Positions 821 through 31,035 of a DNA stretch of 64,000 nucleotides are shown here, piece after piece. Source of the DNA: Escherichia phage vB_EcoM_ACG-C40. Location: sequence record NC_019399.1; one strand, 5' to 3'. Positions within the stretch are counted from its first letter, which is position 1, and each line of letters opens with the position of its first letter. Under the pieces are notes generated by a model. That model made no database searches and was not told where the DNA came from. It saw only the letters and a list, made by a program, of their open reading frames with translations. The position numbers and the translations under genes were made by a program.

Positions 821-2104
821 ATGGCTAAAATCAACGAACTTCTGCGCGAATCAACCACAACGAATAGCAACTCAATCGGTCGCCCAAATCTCGTTGCTTT
901 GACTCGCGCTACCACTAAATTAATATATTCTGACATTGTAGCAACGCAAAGAACTAATCAACCTGTTGCTGCTTTTTATGGTATCAAATACCTTAACCCG
1001 GATAACGAATTTACATTTAAAACTGGTGCTACTTACGCTGGCGAAGCTGGGTATGTAGACCGAGAACAAATCACAGAATTAACAGAAGAGTCTAAATTAA
1101 CTCTCAATAAAGGCGATTTATTCAAATATAATAATATCGTTTATAAAGTATTAGAAGATACACCATTTGCTGATATTGAAGAAAGCGATTTAGAATTAGC
1201 TCTTCAGATTGCAATCGTTCTTTTAAAGGTTCGTCTATTTTCTGATGCTGCAGTAACAAGCAAATTTGAAAACTCTGATAGCGAAATTGCGGATGCTAGA
1301 TTCCAGATTAATAAATGGCAAACCGCAGTTAAATCTCGTAAACTTAAAACTGGCATCACAGTTGAATTAGCACAAGATTTAGAAGCAAACGGATTCGATG
1401 CTCCTAATTTCTTGGAAGATTTGCTTGCAACTGAAATGGCGGATGAAATCAATAAAGATATTCTGCAGTCTTTGATTACAGTATCAAAACGCTATAAAGT
1501 TACAGGAATTACTGATACTGGATTCATTGATTTGAGTTATGCATCTGCACCTGAAGCTGGTCGTTCATTATACCGAATGGTGTGTGAAATGGTTTCACAT
1601 ATCCAGAAAGAATCAACTTATACAGCAACGTTCTGTGTTGCTTCAGCTCGTGCCGCTGCGATTCTTGCTGCATCAGGTTGGTTAAAACATAAACCAGAAG
1701 ATGACAAATATCTTTCACAAAATGCCTACGGGTTCTTAGCTAATGGTTTACCGCTTTATTGCGATACCAACAGTCCATTAGATTATGTAATCGTTGGCGT
1801 AGTAGAAAATATTGGTGAAAAAGAAATTGTTGGATCAATTTTCTATGCTCCGTATACAGAAGGTCTTGACTTAGATGACCCTGAACATGTAGGTGCATTT
1901 AAAGTTGTTGTTGATCCAGAAAGCTTACAACCGTCTATCGGTTTATTAGTTAGATATGCTTTATCAGCAAATCCTTATACCGTAGCAAAAGATGAAAAAG
2001 AAGCAAGAGTAATTGATGGTGGAGATATGGATAAAATGGCGGGTCGTTCAGATTTGTCTGTTTTATTAGGTGTTAAGCTACCAAAAATTATCATTGATGA
2101 ATAA
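821..2104 (+). CDS. 24: head vertex protein gp24
   Basis: 427-aa ORF, gp23 paralog, position directly after gene 23. Confidence 0.9.
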   Translation: MAKINELLRESTTTNSNSIGRPNLVALTRATTKLIYSDIVATQRTNQPVAAFYGIKYLNPDNEFTFKTGATYAGEAGYVDREQITELTEESKLTLNKGDLFKYNNIVYKVLEDTPFADIEESDLELALQIAIVLLKVRLFSDAAVTSKFENSDSEIADARFQINKWQTAVKSRKLKTGITVELAQDLEANGFDAPNFLEDLLATEMADEINKDILQSLITVSKRYKVTGITDTGFIDLSYASAPEAGRSLYRMVCEMVSHIQKESTYTATFCVASARAAAILAASGWLKHKPEDDKYLSQNAYGFLANGLPLYCDTNSPLDYVIVGVVENIGEKEIVGSIFYAPYTEGLDLDDPEHVGAFKVVVDPESLQPSIGLLVRYALSANPYTVAKDEKEARVIDGGDMDKMAGRSDLSVLLGVKLPKIIIDE

Positions 2105-2107
2105 AAC

Positions 2108-2136
2108 AAAGGGACCGAAAGGTCCCTTTTTTATTT
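2108..2136. terminator. bidirectional hairpin terminator between gene 24 and rnlB
   Basis: aaagggacc-gaaa-ggtccctttttt, T/A-rich on both sides. Confidence 0.65.
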
Positions 2137-3139
2137 AACTTACCAATTCAATCCAAGCCGGACGAAGTACATCTTGTACCATTTTAACTAATTCCTTCTT
2201 AATCAAAGAAGGATTATCCGCTTGAGTTAGAGTAATACCTTCACGAGAAGTTTCTTCCAAAATATCTTGAACAGTTAGCCCCATCACCTTTCCAAAATCT
2301 TTTGGACCAATTTCACCAATTTTAGAAATAACGTTATTTACTCGGTTCAGTGTAACGTAGCAAGCTAAAATTCCCACCAATTTGTTATCAGCTTCTGATA
2401 GTTCAACTTTAGCTTTAATAGGCTTATCAGACTTTTTCTTTTCACTAAATTTGGAATTCTTGCATTTGATGGCTACACGATTTCCATTATGAAGTCAAGA
2501 AGGATAACAAGGTTTCAATACATATCCTTCAGCGGTAAATACTTCGCCTTTGGCTTCAGCTTTCCAAACACATTTGTTAGCGTCAACTAATCCAGCATGG
2601 TCTACTGTAAAATTATAATCTTGGACGACAGAATCTAAATCATTTGGCAATTTAATAAGCTCTTCAAATTTACCGCGACCTAAAAGTGGAGCCATTTTAA
2701 ATTTAAATGTATTACAAAATGATTCCATCATATAATCATCGACATAAGTCACATCACCACTTTCTGTAGTGACAATAATGTCAAATACATAAAAATCTTT
2801 ATCGCCATAATCGACATTCTTCTGAATGCCAGGTCCAGCGAATTCGCCAAAGACTTGATAAGATACAACCGCTGAGGTTTCCATAATATCTTGTACTGCT
2901 TTAATAGAATCTTCGTAATTCTTTAGAATAATTTCATACCCAAAGAAATCTTCAGCAGGAAGAATCGGTCCAGTACGTTTAGCGCAAGTTACTTTATCAC
3001 GCTCAATAATCAATGAGAAATTTGTGCCGTGAATCTTTTCACGAGCTACCCACTCCCCACCAGTCAATCCCAAGCTATAAAGTTTTTCAATAAATTTAGA
3101 GTTGTAATGATTTTCAAGACTGCTATACTTTTTAAACAT
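2135..3139 (-). pseudogene. rnlB: RNA ligase 2 (Rnl2) reading frame interrupted by in-frame TGA at codon 215 (2495..2497)
   Basis: N-terminal ORF 2495..3139 has ligase motif I EKIHGTN; frame continues in phase through *LHNGNRVAIKCKNSKF (motif V lysines) into ORF 2135..2380; total 334 codons plus stop. Confidence 0.8.
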
Positions 3140-3148
3140 AATTAATCC

Positions 3149-3427
3149 TCAAAATGTAATTTCTAACCAATCACCATCACGCTGATCACTATTGACTTTA
3201 AAGCTGAATCCTTCTTTTCTCAGCCAATCACCAATTTCTTCAGTAATCAATTTATCACGAGCAATACAATAATAACTAAAATGTGTTTTACCTTGTTCAG
3301 CTGCTTTATTAGCAAGTTCCGAAAAATCTTTAATAAAACACTCTAGCTTAAACTGTTTACTTTTAAGTGCTTTTTCGCGCAATTGATTAGCAAAAGATTC
3401 ATTTTCATAAAGATCATACTGTTCCAT
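3149..3427 (-). CDS. hypothetical protein (92 aa)
   Basis: ORF track; compact spacing downstream of rnlB. Confidence 0.55.
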   Translation of the reverse strand: MEQYDLYENESFANQLREKALKSKQFKLECFIKDFSELANKAAEQGKTHFSYYCIARDKLITEEIGDWLRKEGFSFKVNSDQRDGDWLEITF

Positions 3428-3629
3428 TTTTCACCTTTTTATTGATATGTCTTTTTCTATAGACGACTTTTTCTCGAGTTTCAAATTTATTTTTAGCAGT
3501 CATAGCTCGAGCCCATAATACAGCCACTTCTTTTGCCTGTAAGTTTAATTCACGAGCAATTTCAATGAATGACTTTCCAGACTCATGAAGAGTAAACACC
3601 ACAACCTCAGTTCTCATAATCAATCTCAT
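3414..3629 (-). CDS. hypothetical small protein with helix-turn-helix-like segment (71 aa)
   Basis: ORF track; segment ESGKSFIEIARELNLQAKEV resembles an HTH. Confidence 0.5.
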   Translation of the reverse strand: MRLIMRTEVVVFTLHESGKSFIEIARELNLQAKEVAVLWARAMTAKNKFETREKVVYRKRHINKKVKNGTV

Positions 3630-3730: not shown

Positions 3731-4862
3731 TTATGGATAGGTGTAGATGATACCAGTTTCTAAAGCAGTTTTATGAATGATGTATCCATTGCGTGATTCT
3801 TGAACATCAACTTCTGGATAGTCTTTCATCATCTTCTGAAGAGTGTAACGATGCAGGTAGTATTTACTGTCTGGATCTTCAGTTTTCCAATCTTTACCTT
3901 CTTCGGTCATTTTTTGGATTTCATCCATAACCCACCAACCGCACCAGATATAAGCTGAAGTACGATGTGGAAGAGGATGAACATAAGGTAGTTCACCTTC
4001 TGGTTCTGGAGCAACTTTATCAGTTACCTGAACTTGACCTTCTGCTGTAATAGTTTTGCTATCATAATCAGTTGCAGTAACGACAGCAGTAACTTCAATA
4101 GTTTGACTTCCAACAGATGAGGTATCGACAGTATATACGTTAGTTGACCCTTCTACAGGAGAAGAATCTTTCTTCCATGAGTAAGTAATTTGTGCTTCTT
4201 CTGGAGCACCCGTAACATTAGCCGTAAATGTAGCCGAAGCATCTTGCTGAACATTAATAGAAGGAGGAGTCAATGTAACCTGTGGATTCATTGTCTTCTT
4301 ATTAACTGTCAATGATACTTCATTAGAAGTAACTTCCTTTTCATTGTAATTTTCAGCAGTTACTTGCGCTACACACTTGATTTTTTTTAACTCCACTTGT
4401 GTCAGGAGTGTAATTGAATGTAGCGTCAGTTGCTTTGTCTACAGGAGAACCGTCAACGTGCCATTGATACGTAGGGTTTGCACCTGATGGCTGTGAAGCT
4501 AAGGCAGCGGTAAATTCAATTGGAGTTCCAATCACTCCAGCATCAGGGCTACCAGGAGTTACAGCTAAAGTAGTTGTTTGTGTCTTATTTTGAACTGTGA
4601 TAGTTGTACTAATTTCTGCTGTTTCAGGTTCAGATTCTGCAACTTGATTGGTTGCAACTACTTTAATAGTCTTTTGACCGGCAGGTCCTTTTAGTACATA
4701 ACTAAAAGTTGCTGACGTTTCTTCCTGTGGAGCGTCGTCTACAGTCCAAGCATATGTAATAGATCCATCTCCAGTTTGACCACTGGGTGTAGCAGTAAAC
4801 TGCTGAGTCTGATCTATAACTCCAGTAGGTGTTTTAGGAGTTATATCAACTGTAAAAGTCAT
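3731..4862 (-). pseudogene. hoc: head outer capsid protein Hoc, disrupted by +1 frameshift in A8 run (4381..4388)
   Basis: two overlapping ORFs (4353..4862, 3731..4396) both with Ig-like Hoc sequence; span is 376 codons + stop + 1 nt. Confidence 0.8.
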
Positions 4863-5601: not shown

Positions 5602-6219
5602 ATGTACCACTTTGTATATGAAACAACAAATCTAATAAATGGTAAAAAGTATATAGGAAAACACTCTACTGATGACTTGAATGATGGTTACCTTGGTTCC
5701 GGTAAGGCAATTCAGCAGGCTATAAAGAAATATGGTGAAAACAATTTCTCTAGAACAATACTAAAAGAGTTTAAAACTTCCGAAGAAGCGTACATGTATG
5801 AAGAAGAAATTATAACTCCTGAAATAATAAAAAGCAAAAATTATTATAATATGAAACCTGGCGGAATTGGTGGAATTGTTATGACTACAGAGGTTATAGC
5901 AAAGATGAAAGAATCTTCCGCTAAGAGATTTGAAAACTCACCGGGCACGGTATTAGGTACAACTTGTTACACTAATGGAACTAAAAATATTTTTATTAAG
6001 CCTGGAGAACTTGTTCCAGAAGGATTTGTAAAAGGGATGGTTCATCCTAATAGAAAGTCCAGAAAAGGATGTAAAGTCAAACCGACTACCACAGGAACTT
6101 TTTGGGTCAATAATGGTGCAATAAATAAATTAATACAACCAGACGGTATTATTCCCGACGGATTTATTAAAGGTCGTCTCATGAAAAGAGATTCTAAAGG
6201 CAAATTTAGTAAGGCATAA
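5602..6219 (+). CDS. GIY-YIG homing endonuclease, Seg-like (SegE-like by position)
   Basis: N-terminal GIY-YIG motifs (GKKYIGKHS ... GYLGSG); C-terminal repeated NG...IP.GF.KG DNA-binding modules; sits between inh and uvsW. Confidence 0.75.
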   Translation: MYHFVYETTNLINGKKYIGKHSTDDLNDGYLGSGKAIQQAIKKYGENNFSRTILKEFKTSEEAYMYEEEIITPEIIKSKNYYNMKPGGIGGIVMTTEVIAKMKESSAKRFENSPGTVLGTTCYTNGTKNIFIKPGELVPEGFVKGMVHPNRKSRKGCKVKPTTTGTFWVNNGAINKLIQPDGIIPDGFIKGRLMKRDSKGKFSKA

Positions 6220-15980: not shown

Positions 15981-16945
15981 TGTATTCTTTAGAGGAATTT
16001 AATAATCAAGCAATAAACGCAGATTTCCAACGTAATAATATGTTCAGCTGTGTTTTTGCTACAACTCCATCAACTAAAAGCTCTTCGTTGATAAGTTCAA
16101 TTAGCAACTTTTCTTATAATAACTTGGGCCTAAATTCAGATTGGTTAGGATTAACTCAAGGCGATATTAATCAGGGAATTACTACGCTAATTACAGCTGG
16201 CACACAAAAACTGATAAGAAAATCAGGGGTTAGTAAATATCTTATTGGTGCCATGAGTCAACGTACAGTTCAAAGTTTATTAGGCTCATTTACAGTTGGT
16301 ACATATTTAATTGACTTCTTTAACATGGCATATAACTCATCTGGATTGATGATATACTCTGTAAAAATGCCAGAGAATAGATTATCCTATGAAACTGACT
16401 GGAACTATAATTCTCCTAATATTCGTATAACTGGGAGAGAATTAGACCCTTTGGTTATTTCATTCAGAATGGATTCAGAAGCTTGTAACTATCGTGCAAT
16501 GCAAGACTGGGTTAACGCTGTTCAAGACCCAGTAACTGGATTGCGTGCTTTGCCGCAAGATGTCGAGGCAGATATTCAGGTTAATCTTCATTCTCGCAAT
16601 GGATTACCACATACTGCGGTGATGTTCACTGGATGCATTCCAGTGTCCGTAAGCGCTCCTGAGTTATCATATGATGGAGATAACCAAATAACTACATTTG
16701 ATGTTACTTTTGCGTATAGAGTGATGCAGGCTGGAGCAGTTGATAGACAAGCTGCCCTTGAATGGCTTGAATCTGCTACTATAAATGGTATTCAAAGCGT
16801 TCTCGGAAATAGTGGAGGTGTTACTGGACTATCTAATTCGCTTTCACGACTTAGTAGATTAGGGGGAACTGCAGGAAGCATTTCAAATATTAATACTATG
16901 ACAGGAATTGTCAATTCGCAGAGTAAAATATTAGGAGCAATATAA
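15980..16945 (+). CDS. 54: baseplate-tail tube initiator gp54
   Basis: 321-aa ORF. Confidence 0.85.
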   Translation: MYSLEEFNNQAINADFQRNNMFSCVFATTPSTKSSSLISSISNFSYNNLGLNSDWLGLTQGDINQGITTLITAGTQKLIRKSGVSKYLIGAMSQRTVQSLLGSFTVGTYLIDFFNMAYNSSGLMIYSVKMPENRLSYETDWNYNSPNIRITGRELDPLVISFRMDSEACNYRAMQDWVNAVQDPVTGLRALPQDVEADIQVNLHSRNGLPHTAVMFTGCIPVSVSAPELSYDGDNQITTFDVTFAYRVMQAGAVDRQAALEWLESATINGIQSVLGNSGGVTGLSNSLSRLSRLGGTAGSISNINTMTGIVNSQSKILGAI

Positions 16946-16947
16946 CA

Positions 16948-16980
16948 ATGGGGACCTTTCGGTCCCCATATTTTTATTTA
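16948..16980. terminator. bidirectional hairpin terminator after gene 54
   Basis: atggggacc-tttc-ggtccccat followed by tttttattt. Confidence 0.65.
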
Positions 16981-17264
16981 CGGAATGAAATGAAAGCAGA
17001 AACTGAAGCAACTAAACTGTCTTCAATATAAACTTCAATTTTTACCGGAGCTTCTGACTCAAATTTACCTGTTACTACACCTTGGAAAATACTTTCAGTC
17101 TGTTCTGGTTTTGAAAAATTTTCAGAAGGAAAAATTCCGAACTTTTTATCTGTTCCAAAAATTTTAATAAATTCATCGTAAACTGCTTCATTAAAAGCAT
17201 TATCAGCAGGAATAACGCCTTCAACGACGAGCTCTTGGCCTAAAAAGCGTAAAGAAGATTTCAT
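16974..17264 (-). CDS. hypothetical protein (96 aa)
   Basis: ORF track; preceded by repeated promoter/leader element and SD. Confidence 0.55.
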   Translation of the reverse strand: MKSSLRFLGQELVVEGVIPADNAFNEAVYDEFIKIFGTDKKFGIFPSENFSKPEQTESIFQGVVTGKFESEAPVKIEVYIEDSLVASVSAFISFRK

Positions 17265-17272
17265 TTTGTGTT

Positions 17273-17324
17273 CCTCATGTTATGTCAGTAAGACTACTGT
17301 AACACAACACGAGGGACTTGTAAA
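17273..17324. repeat. 52-bp perfect repeat, copy 1 (second copy at 30980..31031)
   Basis: identical string cctcatgttatgtcagtaagactactgtaacacaacacgagggacttgtaaac at both loci. Confidence 0.85.
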
Positions 17325-17685
17325 CTACATTTTGAACTTTTTAGTACGCGTAATAGGCATGCGTCGATTTTATACTGTTTCATTGTTTGAAGAGCAGTAT
17401 CAAAAACAGCATTAATGACACCAATTGGATTTCCACCCAAGTTTTTAAGCTTAACTAATGATAGTTTCTCATTAACACCTATCATTACGATATGCATCAT
17501 TTTGTCGCCTGGTTTAACGTTTTATCTGTATCACCGCCAGAGGTGTATGTACAAAATCTAAATCCAGGAAGCACGCTTTCTTCGCCGGCTTGAATAGCAA
17601 AAATTTGTGGTATTTTATGCTTAGGATTTAAGTTAACAACCGGCGCCGAAGCGCCGTCAAATAATTATGTAATAAGTTCCATGAT
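17294..17685 (-). pseudogene. degenerate tandem partial copy of the alt 5' region
   Basis: - strand reads MELIT*LFDGASAPVVNLNPKHKIPQIF...FRFCTYTSGGDT then MMHIV...MKQYKIDACLLRVLKS, paralogous to Alt residues 1-120 but with stop at codon 6 and frame breaks. Confidence 0.7.
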
Positions 17686-19734
17686 TTATCCTTGAACGAA
17701 CTTGTAAGGCATGTTTGCAATATCTATGCAAGACGCAATAATTCCAAGAGATGATTCTACTTTCTGTTTAACATTTGATGAAACAAATGATGCAAAGTCA
17801 ACTCTGTCTTCTATATCACCTGTCATTGTAACCAATTCACCAGTTTCCATTAAATGGTCTCCGTCATAGATTACCGATTCGGTGAGTTCTTCTGTGGTCA
17901 TAACTTCAGCTTGAATAAGCTTGTTGTTAGTTCTAACTGTTCCATCGTTGTAAGATGCATCGGTTATTTTATTAACTTTGACCATTAATCCACGTGGCAA
18001 AATGACTTCCATTTCATTTGAAGGCGCTAAACTTCCACCGGGTAAAACAACATTAACCTTATCAGCCCCAGTAATAACCCATCCAATTCCAACTAAATTA
18101 TCGCTAGAATTTACTAGTCCTTCATCAGTTTTATCAATAGAAACACTTAGACGCTTTTCGTCTGGTAAAACACCCACAGATGAATCAGTCATCCAAGTAC
18201 CAAAAATATTTGGATATAATGATGTTGACACAAAGTTTCTAAAATAAAAAACTCGATTTTTTACCATTGCTTCGTATATTGAAGGTAACATTCGTTGTGA
18301 ACGATACAAAGTAATACCTTTTGGTAATCGTTCACCATTTTTAAAGGCTGAATCTAAATTATCAATGGCTTGTTCTATTTCAGGTGCTGTTAAAATACTT
18401 GTACGCTCATCTGGATTATATAATCCCAAAAGAGCATTATTTATGTCTACATATCCTGAACCTACGTATTCACGAATTCCGCGTTTTTGTGCTGGTGTGT
18501 ATTTAGATGAATCTTTATTTTCGACTATAGGATGTAATGACCATCCAGCGGTAAGAGCATATCCACGTAATTCTCTTCGAATAATCTTTGTTTTTATTGC
18601 ATTCCAAGAATTTTGTACTAACTCATTTGCAGCATCTTGGTTTAAATGCGAATGTCTGTTAATATTTCTTTCAAACCAAGCACCTTTATATTTTTCTAAA
18701 GTATCATCGACGATAGAAGCAATAGTTTCTAAAGTTTTTATTGAAGTAATAGATTCTTTTCGTAATTTTTCTAAAGCTTTATTTTTTATTTCTGCATTAA
18801 TAATGGATTCTTTATCTTCAGGAATTATAGAAGCTTCTCTGAATGCCATCCCAGCTGTAACACTGCTAAGAGCATTCTCTAGTGCAAATCCTGAAGTAGA
18901 AATTACCGTTAATTCATTAGAATCAGAAATTAAAGGAGCGTCCGCTGGTTTATTTAATTCTGCCGCTGAAGCCTCAAATTTTTGAAACATCGGTGTTTCA
19001 AATCTAGAAGATTCCAACGACTGACTTTGTGCAATTGCTCTACGGGAAATTTTAACTTTAACGATTACAGCTTGATCAGAACGTTTATCATTTTCTTGTG
19101 CAATAGATGCTGCAATTGCCTCATTTTTAGTTACTTGAGCTCCAGTATCTTTATTGATATAAACATCACCGACCTTCGATTCAACTTTAGTAAAGAGCTC
19201 GGTACTAATTTCCGGAACCCCTGGAATGTCTTCTAGTGATACATTTTTGCGATGTATAAGAATATATGCATACTTTTTATCATAATCCCAGAGTTCCTTA
19301 AGAAGGACGTATCTGCCACCTGAACGACTACGGATAAGTCTATCAGCAATAACTTGAATTTGTCGAGCTTGACCAGCGGTTTTAGACTTAAGAATACGGA
19401 GCATACAGGCATCAATTTTATACTGACGCATCGTTTGCATTGCAACAGTAAAAACCGAATTGATATAATTAATTGGGCTTGGACCAAGACCTTTCAATTT
19501 AGCAATTGAACCTTTAGCGGTTAATGTAAAAGGAACAATATGCATCATTTTATCGCCCATCTTTAAATCACGATTAGTATCACCTCCAGATGTATAGGTA
19601 CATAAACGAAAGCCTGGTTGTTCAATTGCGTCATCAACATGAACTGAAAAAATTTGCGGTATTTTCTTCTTTGGATTTAAGTTTGTAATCGGAAGAGTAG
19701 TATCTTCGTCAAATAATTCTGTAATTAGTTCCAT
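17686..19734 (-). CDS. alt: ADP-ribosyltransferase Alt
   Basis: 682-aa product starting MELITELFDED (second Met of track ORF), recognised. Confidence 0.9.
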   Translation of the reverse strand: MELITELFDEDTTLPITNLNPKKKIPQIFSVHVDDAIEQPGFRLCTYTSGGDTNRDLKMGDKMMHIVPFTLTAKGSIAKLKGLGPSPINYINSVFTVAMQTMRQYKIDACMLRILKSKTAGQARQIQVIADRLIRSRSGGRYVLLKELWDYDKKYAYILIHRKNVSLEDIPGVPEISTELFTKVESKVGDVYINKDTGAQVTKNEAIAASIAQENDKRSDQAVIVKVKISRRAIAQSQSLESSRFETPMFQKFEASAAELNKPADAPLISDSNELTVISTSGFALENALSSVTAGMAFREASIIPEDKESIINAEIKNKALEKLRKESITSIKTLETIASIVDDTLEKYKGAWFERNINRHSHLNQDAANELVQNSWNAIKTKIIRRELRGYALTAGWSLHPIVENKDSSKYTPAQKRGIREYVGSGYVDINNALLGLYNPDERTSILTAPEIEQAIDNLDSAFKNGERLPKGITLYRSQRMLPSIYEAMVKNRVFYFRNFVSTSLYPNIFGTWMTDSSVGVLPDEKRLSVSIDKTDEGLVNSSDNLVGIGWVITGADKVNVVLPGGSLAPSNEMEVILPRGLMVKVNKITDASYNDGTVRTNNKLIQAEVMTTEELTESVIYDGDHLMETGELVTMTGDIEDRVDFASFVSSNVKQKVESSLGIIASCIDIANMPYKFVQG

Positions 19735-19757
19735 CATATCCTCTCTAGTGTTTATTC

Positions 19758-19765
19758 TATTTATA
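19758..19765 (-). promoter_or_regulatory. late promoter TATAAATA (read on - strand) upstream of alt
   Basis: + strand tatttata = TATAAATA on - strand, about 25 nt upstream of alt ATG. Confidence 0.6.
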
Positions 19766-19769
19766 AAAT

Positions 19770-19790
19770 TAAAGGCCCGAAGGCCTTTAG
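19770..19790 (-). terminator. hairpin terminator upstream of alt
   Basis: aaaggcc-cgaa-ggccttt. Confidence 0.55.
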
Positions 19791-19975
19791 TAATCTAGTG
19801 GTAAGAGAGTACGATATATTTCAAACTTTGGTCCTTTTTCATAGGCATCAAATGCTTCTGTGAATTTATTATAAGCGTATGCATCTACAAATTCGAGAAT
19901 GACTTGTGATACAGAAGTAGAAACATCTCCACCTTCTTTTTGAGCAATGACAATTGTTTCTAAGTAAGCTTTCAT
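19787..19975 (-). CDS. hypothetical protein (62 aa)
   Basis: ORF track, overlaps gene 30 stop. Confidence 0.5.
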   Translation of the reverse strand: MKAYLETIVIAQKEGGDVSTSVSQVILEFVDAYAYNKFTEAFDAYEKGPKFEIYRTLLPLDY

Positions 19976-21435
19976 AAACCAGTTACCTCATGAAAATCAC
20001 CAAATACATCTTCGAACGTATTAGCTTTAGTTTTATCTTCGCGTAAACGAATCGCAATCGGAAGAAATAATTTAACGTAATCAGTGCGGCCATCAGATTT
20101 TAACCAACCGTTGCATTCGCACTCTAGAATTTTTCCAATATAATAATTTTGGTTTTCCATAATGCGAGTACGGTCAAGTTCATGCGATTTTACACCGGCT
20201 TTATCTTTTAAGCCTGAACCAGCATTTACTTTAATTTTTCCACACTCTGACTCAAGAATAAATCCGCCTGCTTTAGTAGGGTCTTTACGGTGAGGATAAA
20301 TTCCTACAATTTTTAAATCAACATCAATTACTTCTTTAAATTTATAGAGATTTTTTGAACGGGCATTTTCCCATAACCCATCAACGTTTTTGAGAATAAT
20401 ACCTTCAAGACCTTGGTCAATATACTTTTTGTAAATTACCTTAGCTTCATCTAGGTTATTTACTACCTGGTTTTCAATTAAAATTACTTTATCACAGCCT
20501 GATGTCATTTGTTCTAGTTTAGAAAAACGTACATCATACTTTAAACGAAATGCAGGAAGACCATATATTTCTACTAATGGAACATAATCCCAGACCTGAA
20601 ACTTCATGCATTGAGCTTCTTTTTCTGAAATAGTTCCCTTTAAAGATTTATTAGCGATTCCATTAGAAGCAGTACGTGATTCAGCTACTTCGGCGAATTC
20701 TTTAGCTTTACTAATTTCAGGATAAGCATCAAAAAGAAAATCTAGGCCTTCTGGCTCCTTTTTAACTTGCTCATGGTATACCAATTCGCCATCAATTAAC
20801 ACGCCTTCTGGATGAATCTGGCGGGCTTCAGCGGTCATTTTGATTAATTCTTCCTTAAGAAGATCTAATCCTAGATATTCATTACCGGCTCGTGATAAAA
20901 GACGAACATCATCTAATTCATCACCTCTGACTTCGGCAAAGCACCGAGCCCCATCAGCTTTTAACTGGGCAAAGGCTGGAAATTTGATATTCTTATTAAT
21001 GCCTTTTTCATCATAAGAACTTGCAAGCATTTGAGGTTGTTCAGGAATTAAACCTGGCCAAACTTTGTTTGCAATAGATACTGAAGCACCACATTCAAGG
21101 TCTCGCATCATCACTCGACGCAAAACTTCAACATCATCTTTTTTACCGTCAGTAATATATCCAGTTAATTCCTCAATTGCTGCATTTCCAGTCAATTTCC
21201 GAGTAGCTAATGTGAATTCAATGAAGTCAAGCATATCGGTAAGAGTCAACATTCCAAAACTCTGGGTAGCAATACCAGGTTTAGGCCATTTCTTGATATA
21301 ATACTGCAGCCCACGAGAATAAGTCAGACGATATACTCGTTTAAGCAATTCATTATCTTTATTCTTTTCAAGAATTGCTTGCTTCTGCTTAGTTGAACCA
21401 ATAGATGCTATTTCGTTCAGAATTTTAAGAATCAT
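19972..21435 (-). CDS. 30: ATP-dependent DNA ligase gp30
   Basis: 487-aa ORF with ligase nucleotidyltransferase motif KADGAR. Confidence 0.9.
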   Translation of the reverse strand: MILKILNEIASIGSTKQKQAILEKNKDNELLKRVYRLTYSRGLQYYIKKWPKPGIATQSFGMLTLTDMLDFIEFTLATRKLTGNAAIEELTGYITDGKKDDVEVLRRVMMRDLECGASVSIANKVWPGLIPEQPQMLASSYDEKGINKNIKFPAFAQLKADGARCFAEVRGDELDDVRLLSRAGNEYLGLDLLKEELIKMTAEARQIHPEGVLIDGELVYHEQVKKEPEGLDFLFDAYPEISKAKEFAEVAESRTASNGIANKSLKGTISEKEAQCMKFQVWDYVPLVEIYGLPAFRLKYDVRFSKLEQMTSGCDKVILIENQVVNNLDEAKVIYKKYIDQGLEGIILKNVDGLWENARSKNLYKFKEVIDVDLKIVGIYPHRKDPTKAGGFILESECGKIKVNAGSGLKDKAGVKSHELDRTRIMENQNYYIGKILECECNGWLKSDGRTDYVKLFLPIAIRLREDKTKANTFEDVFGDFHEVTGL

Positions 21436-30126: not shown

Positions 30127-30476
30127 TTAGAAAGGTCCTGGATGTCTTCTGCGAACTTGTTGAAGGAGTTGTTGATTTGTTTTTCAACCAATCCTGGCTT
30201 ATGAGCCACCACATCCGCCTTCTTTGCGTCTTTGCGCAGTTTTTCATTTTCACGCTCAATAGCAGCAATTGCCTCACGATTTTTATTATTCATCGCATCA
30301 ATATAATTATACTGAATTCGCAAATTATTTAATGCTAAGGCGTTTTCATTGGCCGTTTTTGTAATTTCAGTAACTGATGTTTCTAATCTTTCTACCTTAT
30401 TTTTTAAAATAATAGATGTTCCGCCAAATGCTATTACAAGTAATAGCAATCCAGCTGTAAAATTACTTACATGCAT
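30123..30476 (-). CDS. pseT.3: inner-membrane spanin (i-spanin)
   Basis: N-terminal transmembrane segment followed by coiled-coil-rich periplasmic domain; overlaps o-spanin start. Confidence 0.6.
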   Translation of the reverse strand: MHVSNFTAGLLLLVIAFGGTSIILKNKVERLETSVTEITKTANENALALNNLRIQYNYIDAMNNKNREAIAAIERENEKLRKDAKKADVVAHKPGLVEKQINNSFNKFAEDIQDLSK

Positions 30477-30970
30477 AAAGTTTTAATAACCTCTATAATA
30501 TCGTCTTGAGAAAGACCGTTAATTAAAATATGATGTTCAGCCGGAGATTTAGAAATTTTAAAGCACGCCGCAACATCTTCTGCCATATCCGATGCGCTAC
30601 GATTTGGATTACTAATTCCAAGACGATGCTTTCCTGTCAAAGGATTAACGATGATATAGCATTTGCAGCTATTGATATGAACATTAGGTTGAGTCTGATT
30701 AATAAACACTTCACAATCATACTTAGCGAGTTGATTTTCTAAAAAGACTTTCATCTCCTCAACCGCATCAGGAAGCATATCACGGGCTTGCTCAAGACGA
30801 CGATTTCGATATTCTTTAATGGTTGTTTTCCGCTTTACTTGCTTAGCTAAATCTTTCTTAAGATCGGTGATATATCCAACTCGACGATTTCCTTTGAATA
30901 CAGAAATCCCATCTGTAGTATCACCGTATGCTTCAACGACCATTTCAGTAGTAATGAGCTGCAAATCCAT
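30467..30970 (-). CDS. alc: Alc, inhibitor of host transcription
   Basis: 167-aa product from MDLQLITTEMVVEAYGD; track ORF has a 5-codon extension that lies within the 52-bp repeat. Confidence 0.75.
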   Translation of the reverse strand: MDLQLITTEMVVEAYGDTTDGISVFKGNRRVGYITDLKKDLAKQVKRKTTIKEYRNRRLEQARDMLPDAVEEMKVFLENQLAKYDCEVFINQTQPNVHINSCKCYIIVNPLTGKHRLGISNPNRSASDMAEDVAACFKISKSPAEHHILINGLSQDDIIEVIKTLCM

Positions 30971-30979
30971 CATAAAGTC

Positions 30980-31031
30980 CCTCATGTTATGTCAGTAAGA
31001 CTACTGTAACACAACACGAGGGACTTGTAAA
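30980..31031. repeat. 52-bp perfect repeat, copy 2 (first copy at 17273..17324)
   Basis: identical 52-nt string; - strand reads GTTTACAAGTCCCTCGTGTTGTGTTACAGTAGTCTTACTGACATAACATGAGG. Confidence 0.85.
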
Positions 31032-31035
31032 CAAC

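Follow-up and report, generated by a model that had tools for sequence, protein, structure and literature searches.

A second Alt-like ADP-ribosyltransferase gene, probably reduced to a pseudogene by a 1699-bp deletion between 9-bp direct repeats, downstream of alt in Escherichia phage vB_EcoM_ACG-C40

The interval immediately downstream of the ADP-ribosyltransferase gene alt of Escherichia phage vB_EcoM_ACG-C40 (17294-17685 in the 64,000-nucleotide stretch of NC_019399.1 analysed here, 'the window') is very probably a pseudogene: it holds the remains of a second, full-length alt-like gene that suffered one 1699-bp deletion between 9-bp repeats and then accumulated lineage-specific lesions. 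Throughout, we refer to this second Alt-like ADP-ribosyltransferase (ART) gene as alt2, the name given to it in this analysis, and to its remains as the relic. An intact ortholog is present at the same locus in relatives, and the copy in the window carries three kinds of disabling lesion: the deletion, a 1-nt loss and a nonsense codon.

The source phage is of the T4 type (Tequatrovirus), and the 2.9-kb region around the relic is 98.9% identical to vB_EcoM_PTE-Eco15 and 97.5% identical to T4. The gene order is the same as in T4: on the - strand DNA ligase (19972-21435), a 62-aa ORF (19787-19975), alt, the relic and a DUF5498 ORF, and then gp54 on the + strand. Of these, the 62-aa ORF matches the Pfam family 'Phage blade protein' (PF24647, E=5e-29); its counterpart is labelled 'Alt.1' in one T4-derived record (MZ375356). 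Gene alt itself (17686..19737, - strand; annotated Alt in T4) is intact and encodes 683 aa, with an ADPrib_exo_Tox domain (PF03496) at residues 375-615 (E=1.4e-34). The alt start is preceded, at a distance of about 20 nt and directly past a terminator-like hairpin, by TATAAATA (19758-19765, - strand), the T4 late-promoter consensus, and from this site the intact alt2 of relatives would be co-transcribed. The DUF5498 ORF, alt.-3 by its T4 name (16974..17264, - strand; 96 aa; PF17602, E=5e-64), is likewise intact; annotated in every relative examined, it sets the 3' boundary of the locus. Between the convergent alt.-3 and gp54 there is a bidirectional terminator-like hairpin with a 9-bp stem (16948-16969, both strands), which has a terminator annotation in the fPS-2 and KAW1E185 records.

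As the first-pass annotation had described, the - strand starts anew just past the alt stop codon (the ORF ends at 17686): three spacer nucleotides, ATC, are followed by ATGGAACTTATTACATAA at 17682-17665, which reads MELIT followed by a stop, and downstream of it Alt-like coding sequence goes on in two frames. Aligned with the alt 5' region, the interval displays similarity far above chance. Searched by blastn against the whole window, 17294-17685 matched alt at 19535-19737 (70% identity over 203 nt, E=7e-21) and, in a second segment, at 19406-19464, while blastx resolved it into two frame-shifted pieces corresponding to Alt residues 1-63 and 57-118 (E=2e-36). Once the codon-6 stop is mended and one A restored, the repaired translation is 129 aa long and 62% identical to Alt residues 2-118 (E=8e-49), in agreement with the earlier description of homology to the Alt N-terminus broken by an early stop and frame shifts. 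The relic is paralogous to the N-terminal ~118 residues of T4 gpAlt, the virion-packaged NAD+:arginine ADP-ribosyltransferase, and is devoid of its catalytic region.

Two T4 reading frames have equivalents here. The alt.-1 equivalent (17497..17682, - strand), placed by T4 annotation and alignments, is stopped at codon 6, and the alt.-2 equivalent is the 68-aa ORF (67 aa in T4) that the ORF list and the alignment locate at 17294..17500 on the - strand. The 68-aa ORF has no Pfam match, hence no catalytic ART domain. Nor is it the intact piece it had been taken for: its first 55 codons correspond to ancestral Alt2 residues 62-116, and the last 13 are out of frame or formerly intergenic.

Shigella phage SfPhi01 and phage RB27 have an intact alt2 gene (2058 nt, 685 aa) that starts 3 nt past the alt stop, ends ~60 nt before alt.-3 and encodes a PF03496 ART domain at residues 416-620. 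Of the 496 matching phage records, 402, T2 among them, contain at least 80% of alt2; two ART annotations meet at the alt/alt2 junction in T6 and many other records, and SHFML-11 and others are further carriers of the intact gene. Compared with the orthologous locus of T2, T6, RB27, SfPhi01 and SHFML-11, the window is without 1699 bp and has a frameshift and a nonsense codon besides. An intact second ART gene at this position, which the first-pass annotation had proposed looking for in T4 and other relatives, is therefore found in most relatives but not in T4, which has the same relic.

At the DNA level (blastn), the relic matches the 5' end of alt2 (~350 nt) with 97% identity in SfPhi01 and 96% in RB27, and in these two phages it matches the 3' end of the gene plus the downstream spacer with 95-97% identity; against alt of its own genome the figure is only 67-70%. 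The relic is therefore a remnant of alt2 and not a copy of the alt 5' region. The Alt and Alt2 proteins are 42% identical over their full length, and since a full-length gene occupies the same site, this divergence indicates that the duplication was itself full-length and old. As judged by these sequence comparisons, alt2 is an old, diverged tandem paralog of alt, and alt is the relic's paralog, not its direct source. The earlier suggestion of a decaying alt paralog or tandem-duplication relic thus holds, with the intact paralog at the same site (96-97% identity) as its counterpart. A pair of paralogous Alt-like proteins with 43% identity is noted for a Tequatrovirus in a 2026 paper (PMC13600099); our literature search found no paper characterising the Alt2 enzyme.

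Base-by-base alignment to intact alt2 places the deletion junction at 17336..17344 (- strand), at the sole remaining copy of a 9-bp direct repeat, CTAAAAAGT. The 7.6-kb SfPhi01 locus has exactly two copies of it, at 3964-3972 and 5663-5671, 1699 bp apart; the window and T4 each have one copy, and the intervening 1699 bp are absent. The deleted segment amounts to codons ~117-681 and includes the entire catalytic domain (PF03496, Alt2 residues 416-620). What is left of alt2 (17325..17682, - strand) is its first 348 nt, of which 347 nt survive here; at the 9-bp repeat they run directly into the 11 nt that closed the gene, stop codon included. The deletion length, 1699, is not divisible by 3, so these 11 nt past the junction are out of frame, and with them now the ancestral alt2 stop TAG (17325..17327, - strand), which aligns with the end of the SfPhi01 CDS (5682 in its locus). 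Homology to alt stops at the junction: the 11 nt at 17325-17335 are the final codons and stop of the ancestral gene, and 17294-17324 is former intergenic promoter sequence. The alt-derived extent originally assigned, 17294-17685, consequently stands up to the junction at 17336-17344 and fails for 17294-17324.

A 201-nt probe centred on the junction gave a contiguous match in 89 of 497 records; elsewhere the match is split at the 9-bp repeat. All 11 deletion alleles read have an identical junction (the AV119 relic, known by annotation alone, was left out of the allele reading), and a scan of IMG/VR with the exact 31-nt junction returned two contigs, both T4-like (GAA at codon 6 and an A-run of four, see below). 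We infer that replication slippage or illegitimate recombination produced the deletion. Given the identical junction we assume that it originated once, the alternative being recurrence at the same 9-bp repeat.

Two later lesions disrupt the remaining frame in the window. The first is a 1-nt loss in an A-run (17520..17523, - strand; A4 here, A5 in intact alt2), which, as the alignment shows, splits the frame into alt.-1 and alt.-2. The second is a GAA-to-TAA nonsense change at codon 6 (17665..17667, - strand); T4 and the intact alt2 genes have GAA. With a 60-nt probe over codon 6, 43 of 488 records matched the window without a difference and 441 showed 1-2 mismatches. The two sites occur in three combinations: TAA with A4 in the window, PD112 and pSe_SNUABM_01; TAA with A5 in PTE-Eco15, fPS-2 and SG1; and GAA with A4 in two T4 records and the two IMG/VR contigs. 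Furthermore, an extra 1-nt deletion cuts alt.-2 of PD112 to 39 aa, and a T-to-C change at 17299 turns the T4 alt.-2 stop into CAG, adding one codon and yielding the 68 aa seen here. While the alt.-2 ORF, with its MMHIV start, is open in 10 of the 11 alleles read, every one of the 11 has at least one disabling lesion beyond the 1699-bp deletion, and no reading frame is conserved across them. Variable lesions together with the lack of a conserved frame are pseudogene-like behaviour, and the variation speaks against constraint on the remaining coding sequence.

The three combinations of codon 6 and A-run imply that the A-run slipped more than once or that alleles recombined. Recombination is favoured by the middle of the PTE-Eco15 and fPS-2 relics, where a patch of substitutions is typical of RB27-type intact alt2. 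Differing sites among the relic alleles are few, too few for dN/dS, and many look like recombination with intact alt2 alleles.

The history that we propose is as follows. In the ancestor, as in most Tequatrovirus phages today, alt2 would have started 3 nt past the alt stop and ended shortly before the early promoter of alt.-3. One deletion of 1699 bp between the two repeat copies would have removed the catalytic domain and joined 348 nt, out of frame, to the final 11 nt. Thereafter the stump would have gained lesions differing by lineage: in the window, the A-run loss, common to T4, and the codon-6 TAA, which T4 does not have. Lying downstream of alt, it would be transcribed passively; it probably encodes nothing useful, and its sequence would drift neutrally. 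The 3' end of the stump would owe its survival to the promoter, leader and ribosome-binding site that it provides for alt.-3. These elements form an early-promoter-like cassette of 53 nt (17273..17325, - strand), organised as GTTTAC-N18-TACAGT ... GAGG, with the leader and Shine-Dalgarno sequence for alt.-3. The cassette begins at the G of the old alt2 stop codon and is matched by the promoter scan at 17324..17296. It is also found downstream of the intact alt2 stop in relatives and was left untouched by the deletion.

The opposite end of the relic is strongly conserved. Over the 60 nt at 17638-17697, which take in the alt stop plus the opening 45 nt of the relic or alt2, 484 of 488 records are at least 95% identical, the codon-6 G/T being the sole difference in most of them; whole alt2 genes are less alike, mostly at 90-95% identity. 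The segment includes a hairpin, CGGCGC-UUCG-GCGCCG, with a 6-bp G+C stem and a UUCG loop (17641-17656, - strand; ~25 nt past the alt stop; centroid -12.8 kcal/mol), that is kept in the intact alt2 genes too. Both features could be accommodated if the first ~60 nt, comprising the ribosome-binding site, the 5-codon mini-ORF and the hairpin, were a cis-acting 3' element of the alt mRNA serving its stability or ribosome release. This reading is compatible with a pseudogene and, if true, would explain why the 5' segment is unchanged in the deletion allele while the remainder decays. We nevertheless consider it improbable: the fold of the 81-nt 5' region does not differ significantly from shuffled sequences (z=-1.5), the hairpin is without a T-run, the terminator scan made no - strand call within the relic, and an Rfam scan of 16900-19900 (E<=1) yielded two sub-threshold chance matches outside the relic and none in it. 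The conservation, moreover, may equally be due to the intact alt2 that most genomes possess, through its ribosome-binding site and N-terminal peptide. The - strand terminator calls that were made concern a C(UUCG)G hairpin upstream of alt, the terminator past alt.-3 and a weak site inside alt. The first of these, at 19770-19789, has a T-run and is similar to the hairpin of the relic.

In T4, alt.-1 and alt.-2 (AF158101; UniProt P39495 and P39494) occupy the same slot between alt and alt.-3. Over 511 nt the T4 locus is 98.0% identical in DNA to the window, and it shares the deletion junction and the A4 frameshift. It differs in that T4 alt.-1 is open (61 aa, GAA at codon 6) whereas alt.-1 of the window is stopped by TAA, and in that T4 alt.-2 has 67 aa instead of 68, its stop being changed to CAG here. 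In published time-resolved T4 omics data (PMC9697503, Table S2), alt.-1 and alt.-2 have the transcript class 'middle' and the protein class NA, i.e. neither protein was detected, although proteomics readily overlooks small proteins; the same table classes alt.-3 and alc as early in both RNA and protein. The expression pattern of alt.-1 and alt.-2 fits passive transcription of a dead stump.

Could alt.-1 and/or alt.-2 nonetheless be functional small genes, encoding, for example, N-terminal fragments that contact the prohead core or Alt? The two ORFs are annotated and transcribed in T4, which has kept alt.-1 at 61 aa; the alt.-2 frame is open in all but one of the alleles read; and the ancestral ribosome-binding site and ATG persist 3 nt past the alt stop. 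Yet alt.-1 ends at codon 6 in the window and 43 records, the frame relation of the two ORFs varies between phages, and alt.-2 of PD112 is only 39 aa; neither product appears in T4 proteomics, neither has a Pfam domain, and ~80% of relatives carry the full gene instead. On balance, a function for these ORFs seems to us very improbable.

The feature as such is already known, and what is added here is a refinement, namely its exact history: a full-length paralog, a 1699-bp deletion and lineage-specific decay. A note in the T4 GenBank record AF158101 states that alt.-1 and alt.-2 together seem 'a duplication of the first part of gene alt', with a stop codon introduced into it; Nolan et al. 2006 list them among paralogous duplications of alt (PMC1524935); and the fPS-2 record describes its copy as 'similar to N-terminal of ... 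Alt; putative pseudogene'. In the literature searched we found no prior statement of the sequence of events from full-length paralog through 1699-bp deletion to decay. The partial tandem duplication of just the first ~350 nt of the phage's own alt, later degraded, which the first-pass annotation had put forward in much the same words as AF158101 and Nolan et al., would account for homology limited to Alt residues 1-118 but is most unlikely, as the relic resembles the full-length alt2 at its own site far more than alt (96-97% vs 67-70%), retains the last 11 nt, stop codon and downstream promoter of alt2, and breaks at a 9-bp repeat found twice in the full-length gene.

The alt2 pseudogene carries little weight for biology and some for annotation. 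Hundreds of T4-like records list alt.-1 and alt.-2 as 'hypothetical protein' or 'ADP-ribosyltransferase'; they would be better described as fragments of one pseudogene. T4, the model phage for ADP-ribosylation studies, represents the minority state at this locus: ~80% of its sequenced relatives, T2 and T6 included, encode an intact second Alt-like enzyme, which cannot be studied in T4.

Phage vB_EcoM_KAW1E185 shows a third arrangement of the locus, with a single intact ART gene of 2058 nt (1564-3621 in its locus) between the 62-aa ORF and alt.-3. Over its 5' 815 nt this gene resembles alt (95%) and over its 3' 360 nt alt2 (88%); the middle is close to neither. Its composition suggests that it may be a fusion, or a replacement, brought about by recombination between the tandem paralogs.

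Finally, the 53-nt promoter cassette recurs in the window: the identical 53-mer GTTTACAAGTCCCTCGTGTTGTGTTACAGTAGTCTTACTGACATAACATGAGG is present at 17273-17325 and at 30980-31032, both on the - strand. The second copy precedes a 172-aa ORF (30467-30985) that lies downstream of an RNA-ligase-like ORF; the matching position in T4 presumably holds alc, going by our reading of the map. This copy is flanked by an inverted repeat, AAGTCCCTC...GAGGGACTT, and resembles a promoter-stem-loop cassette. The -10 element is TACAGT in both window copies, whereas the T4 alt.-3 copy has TATAGT.
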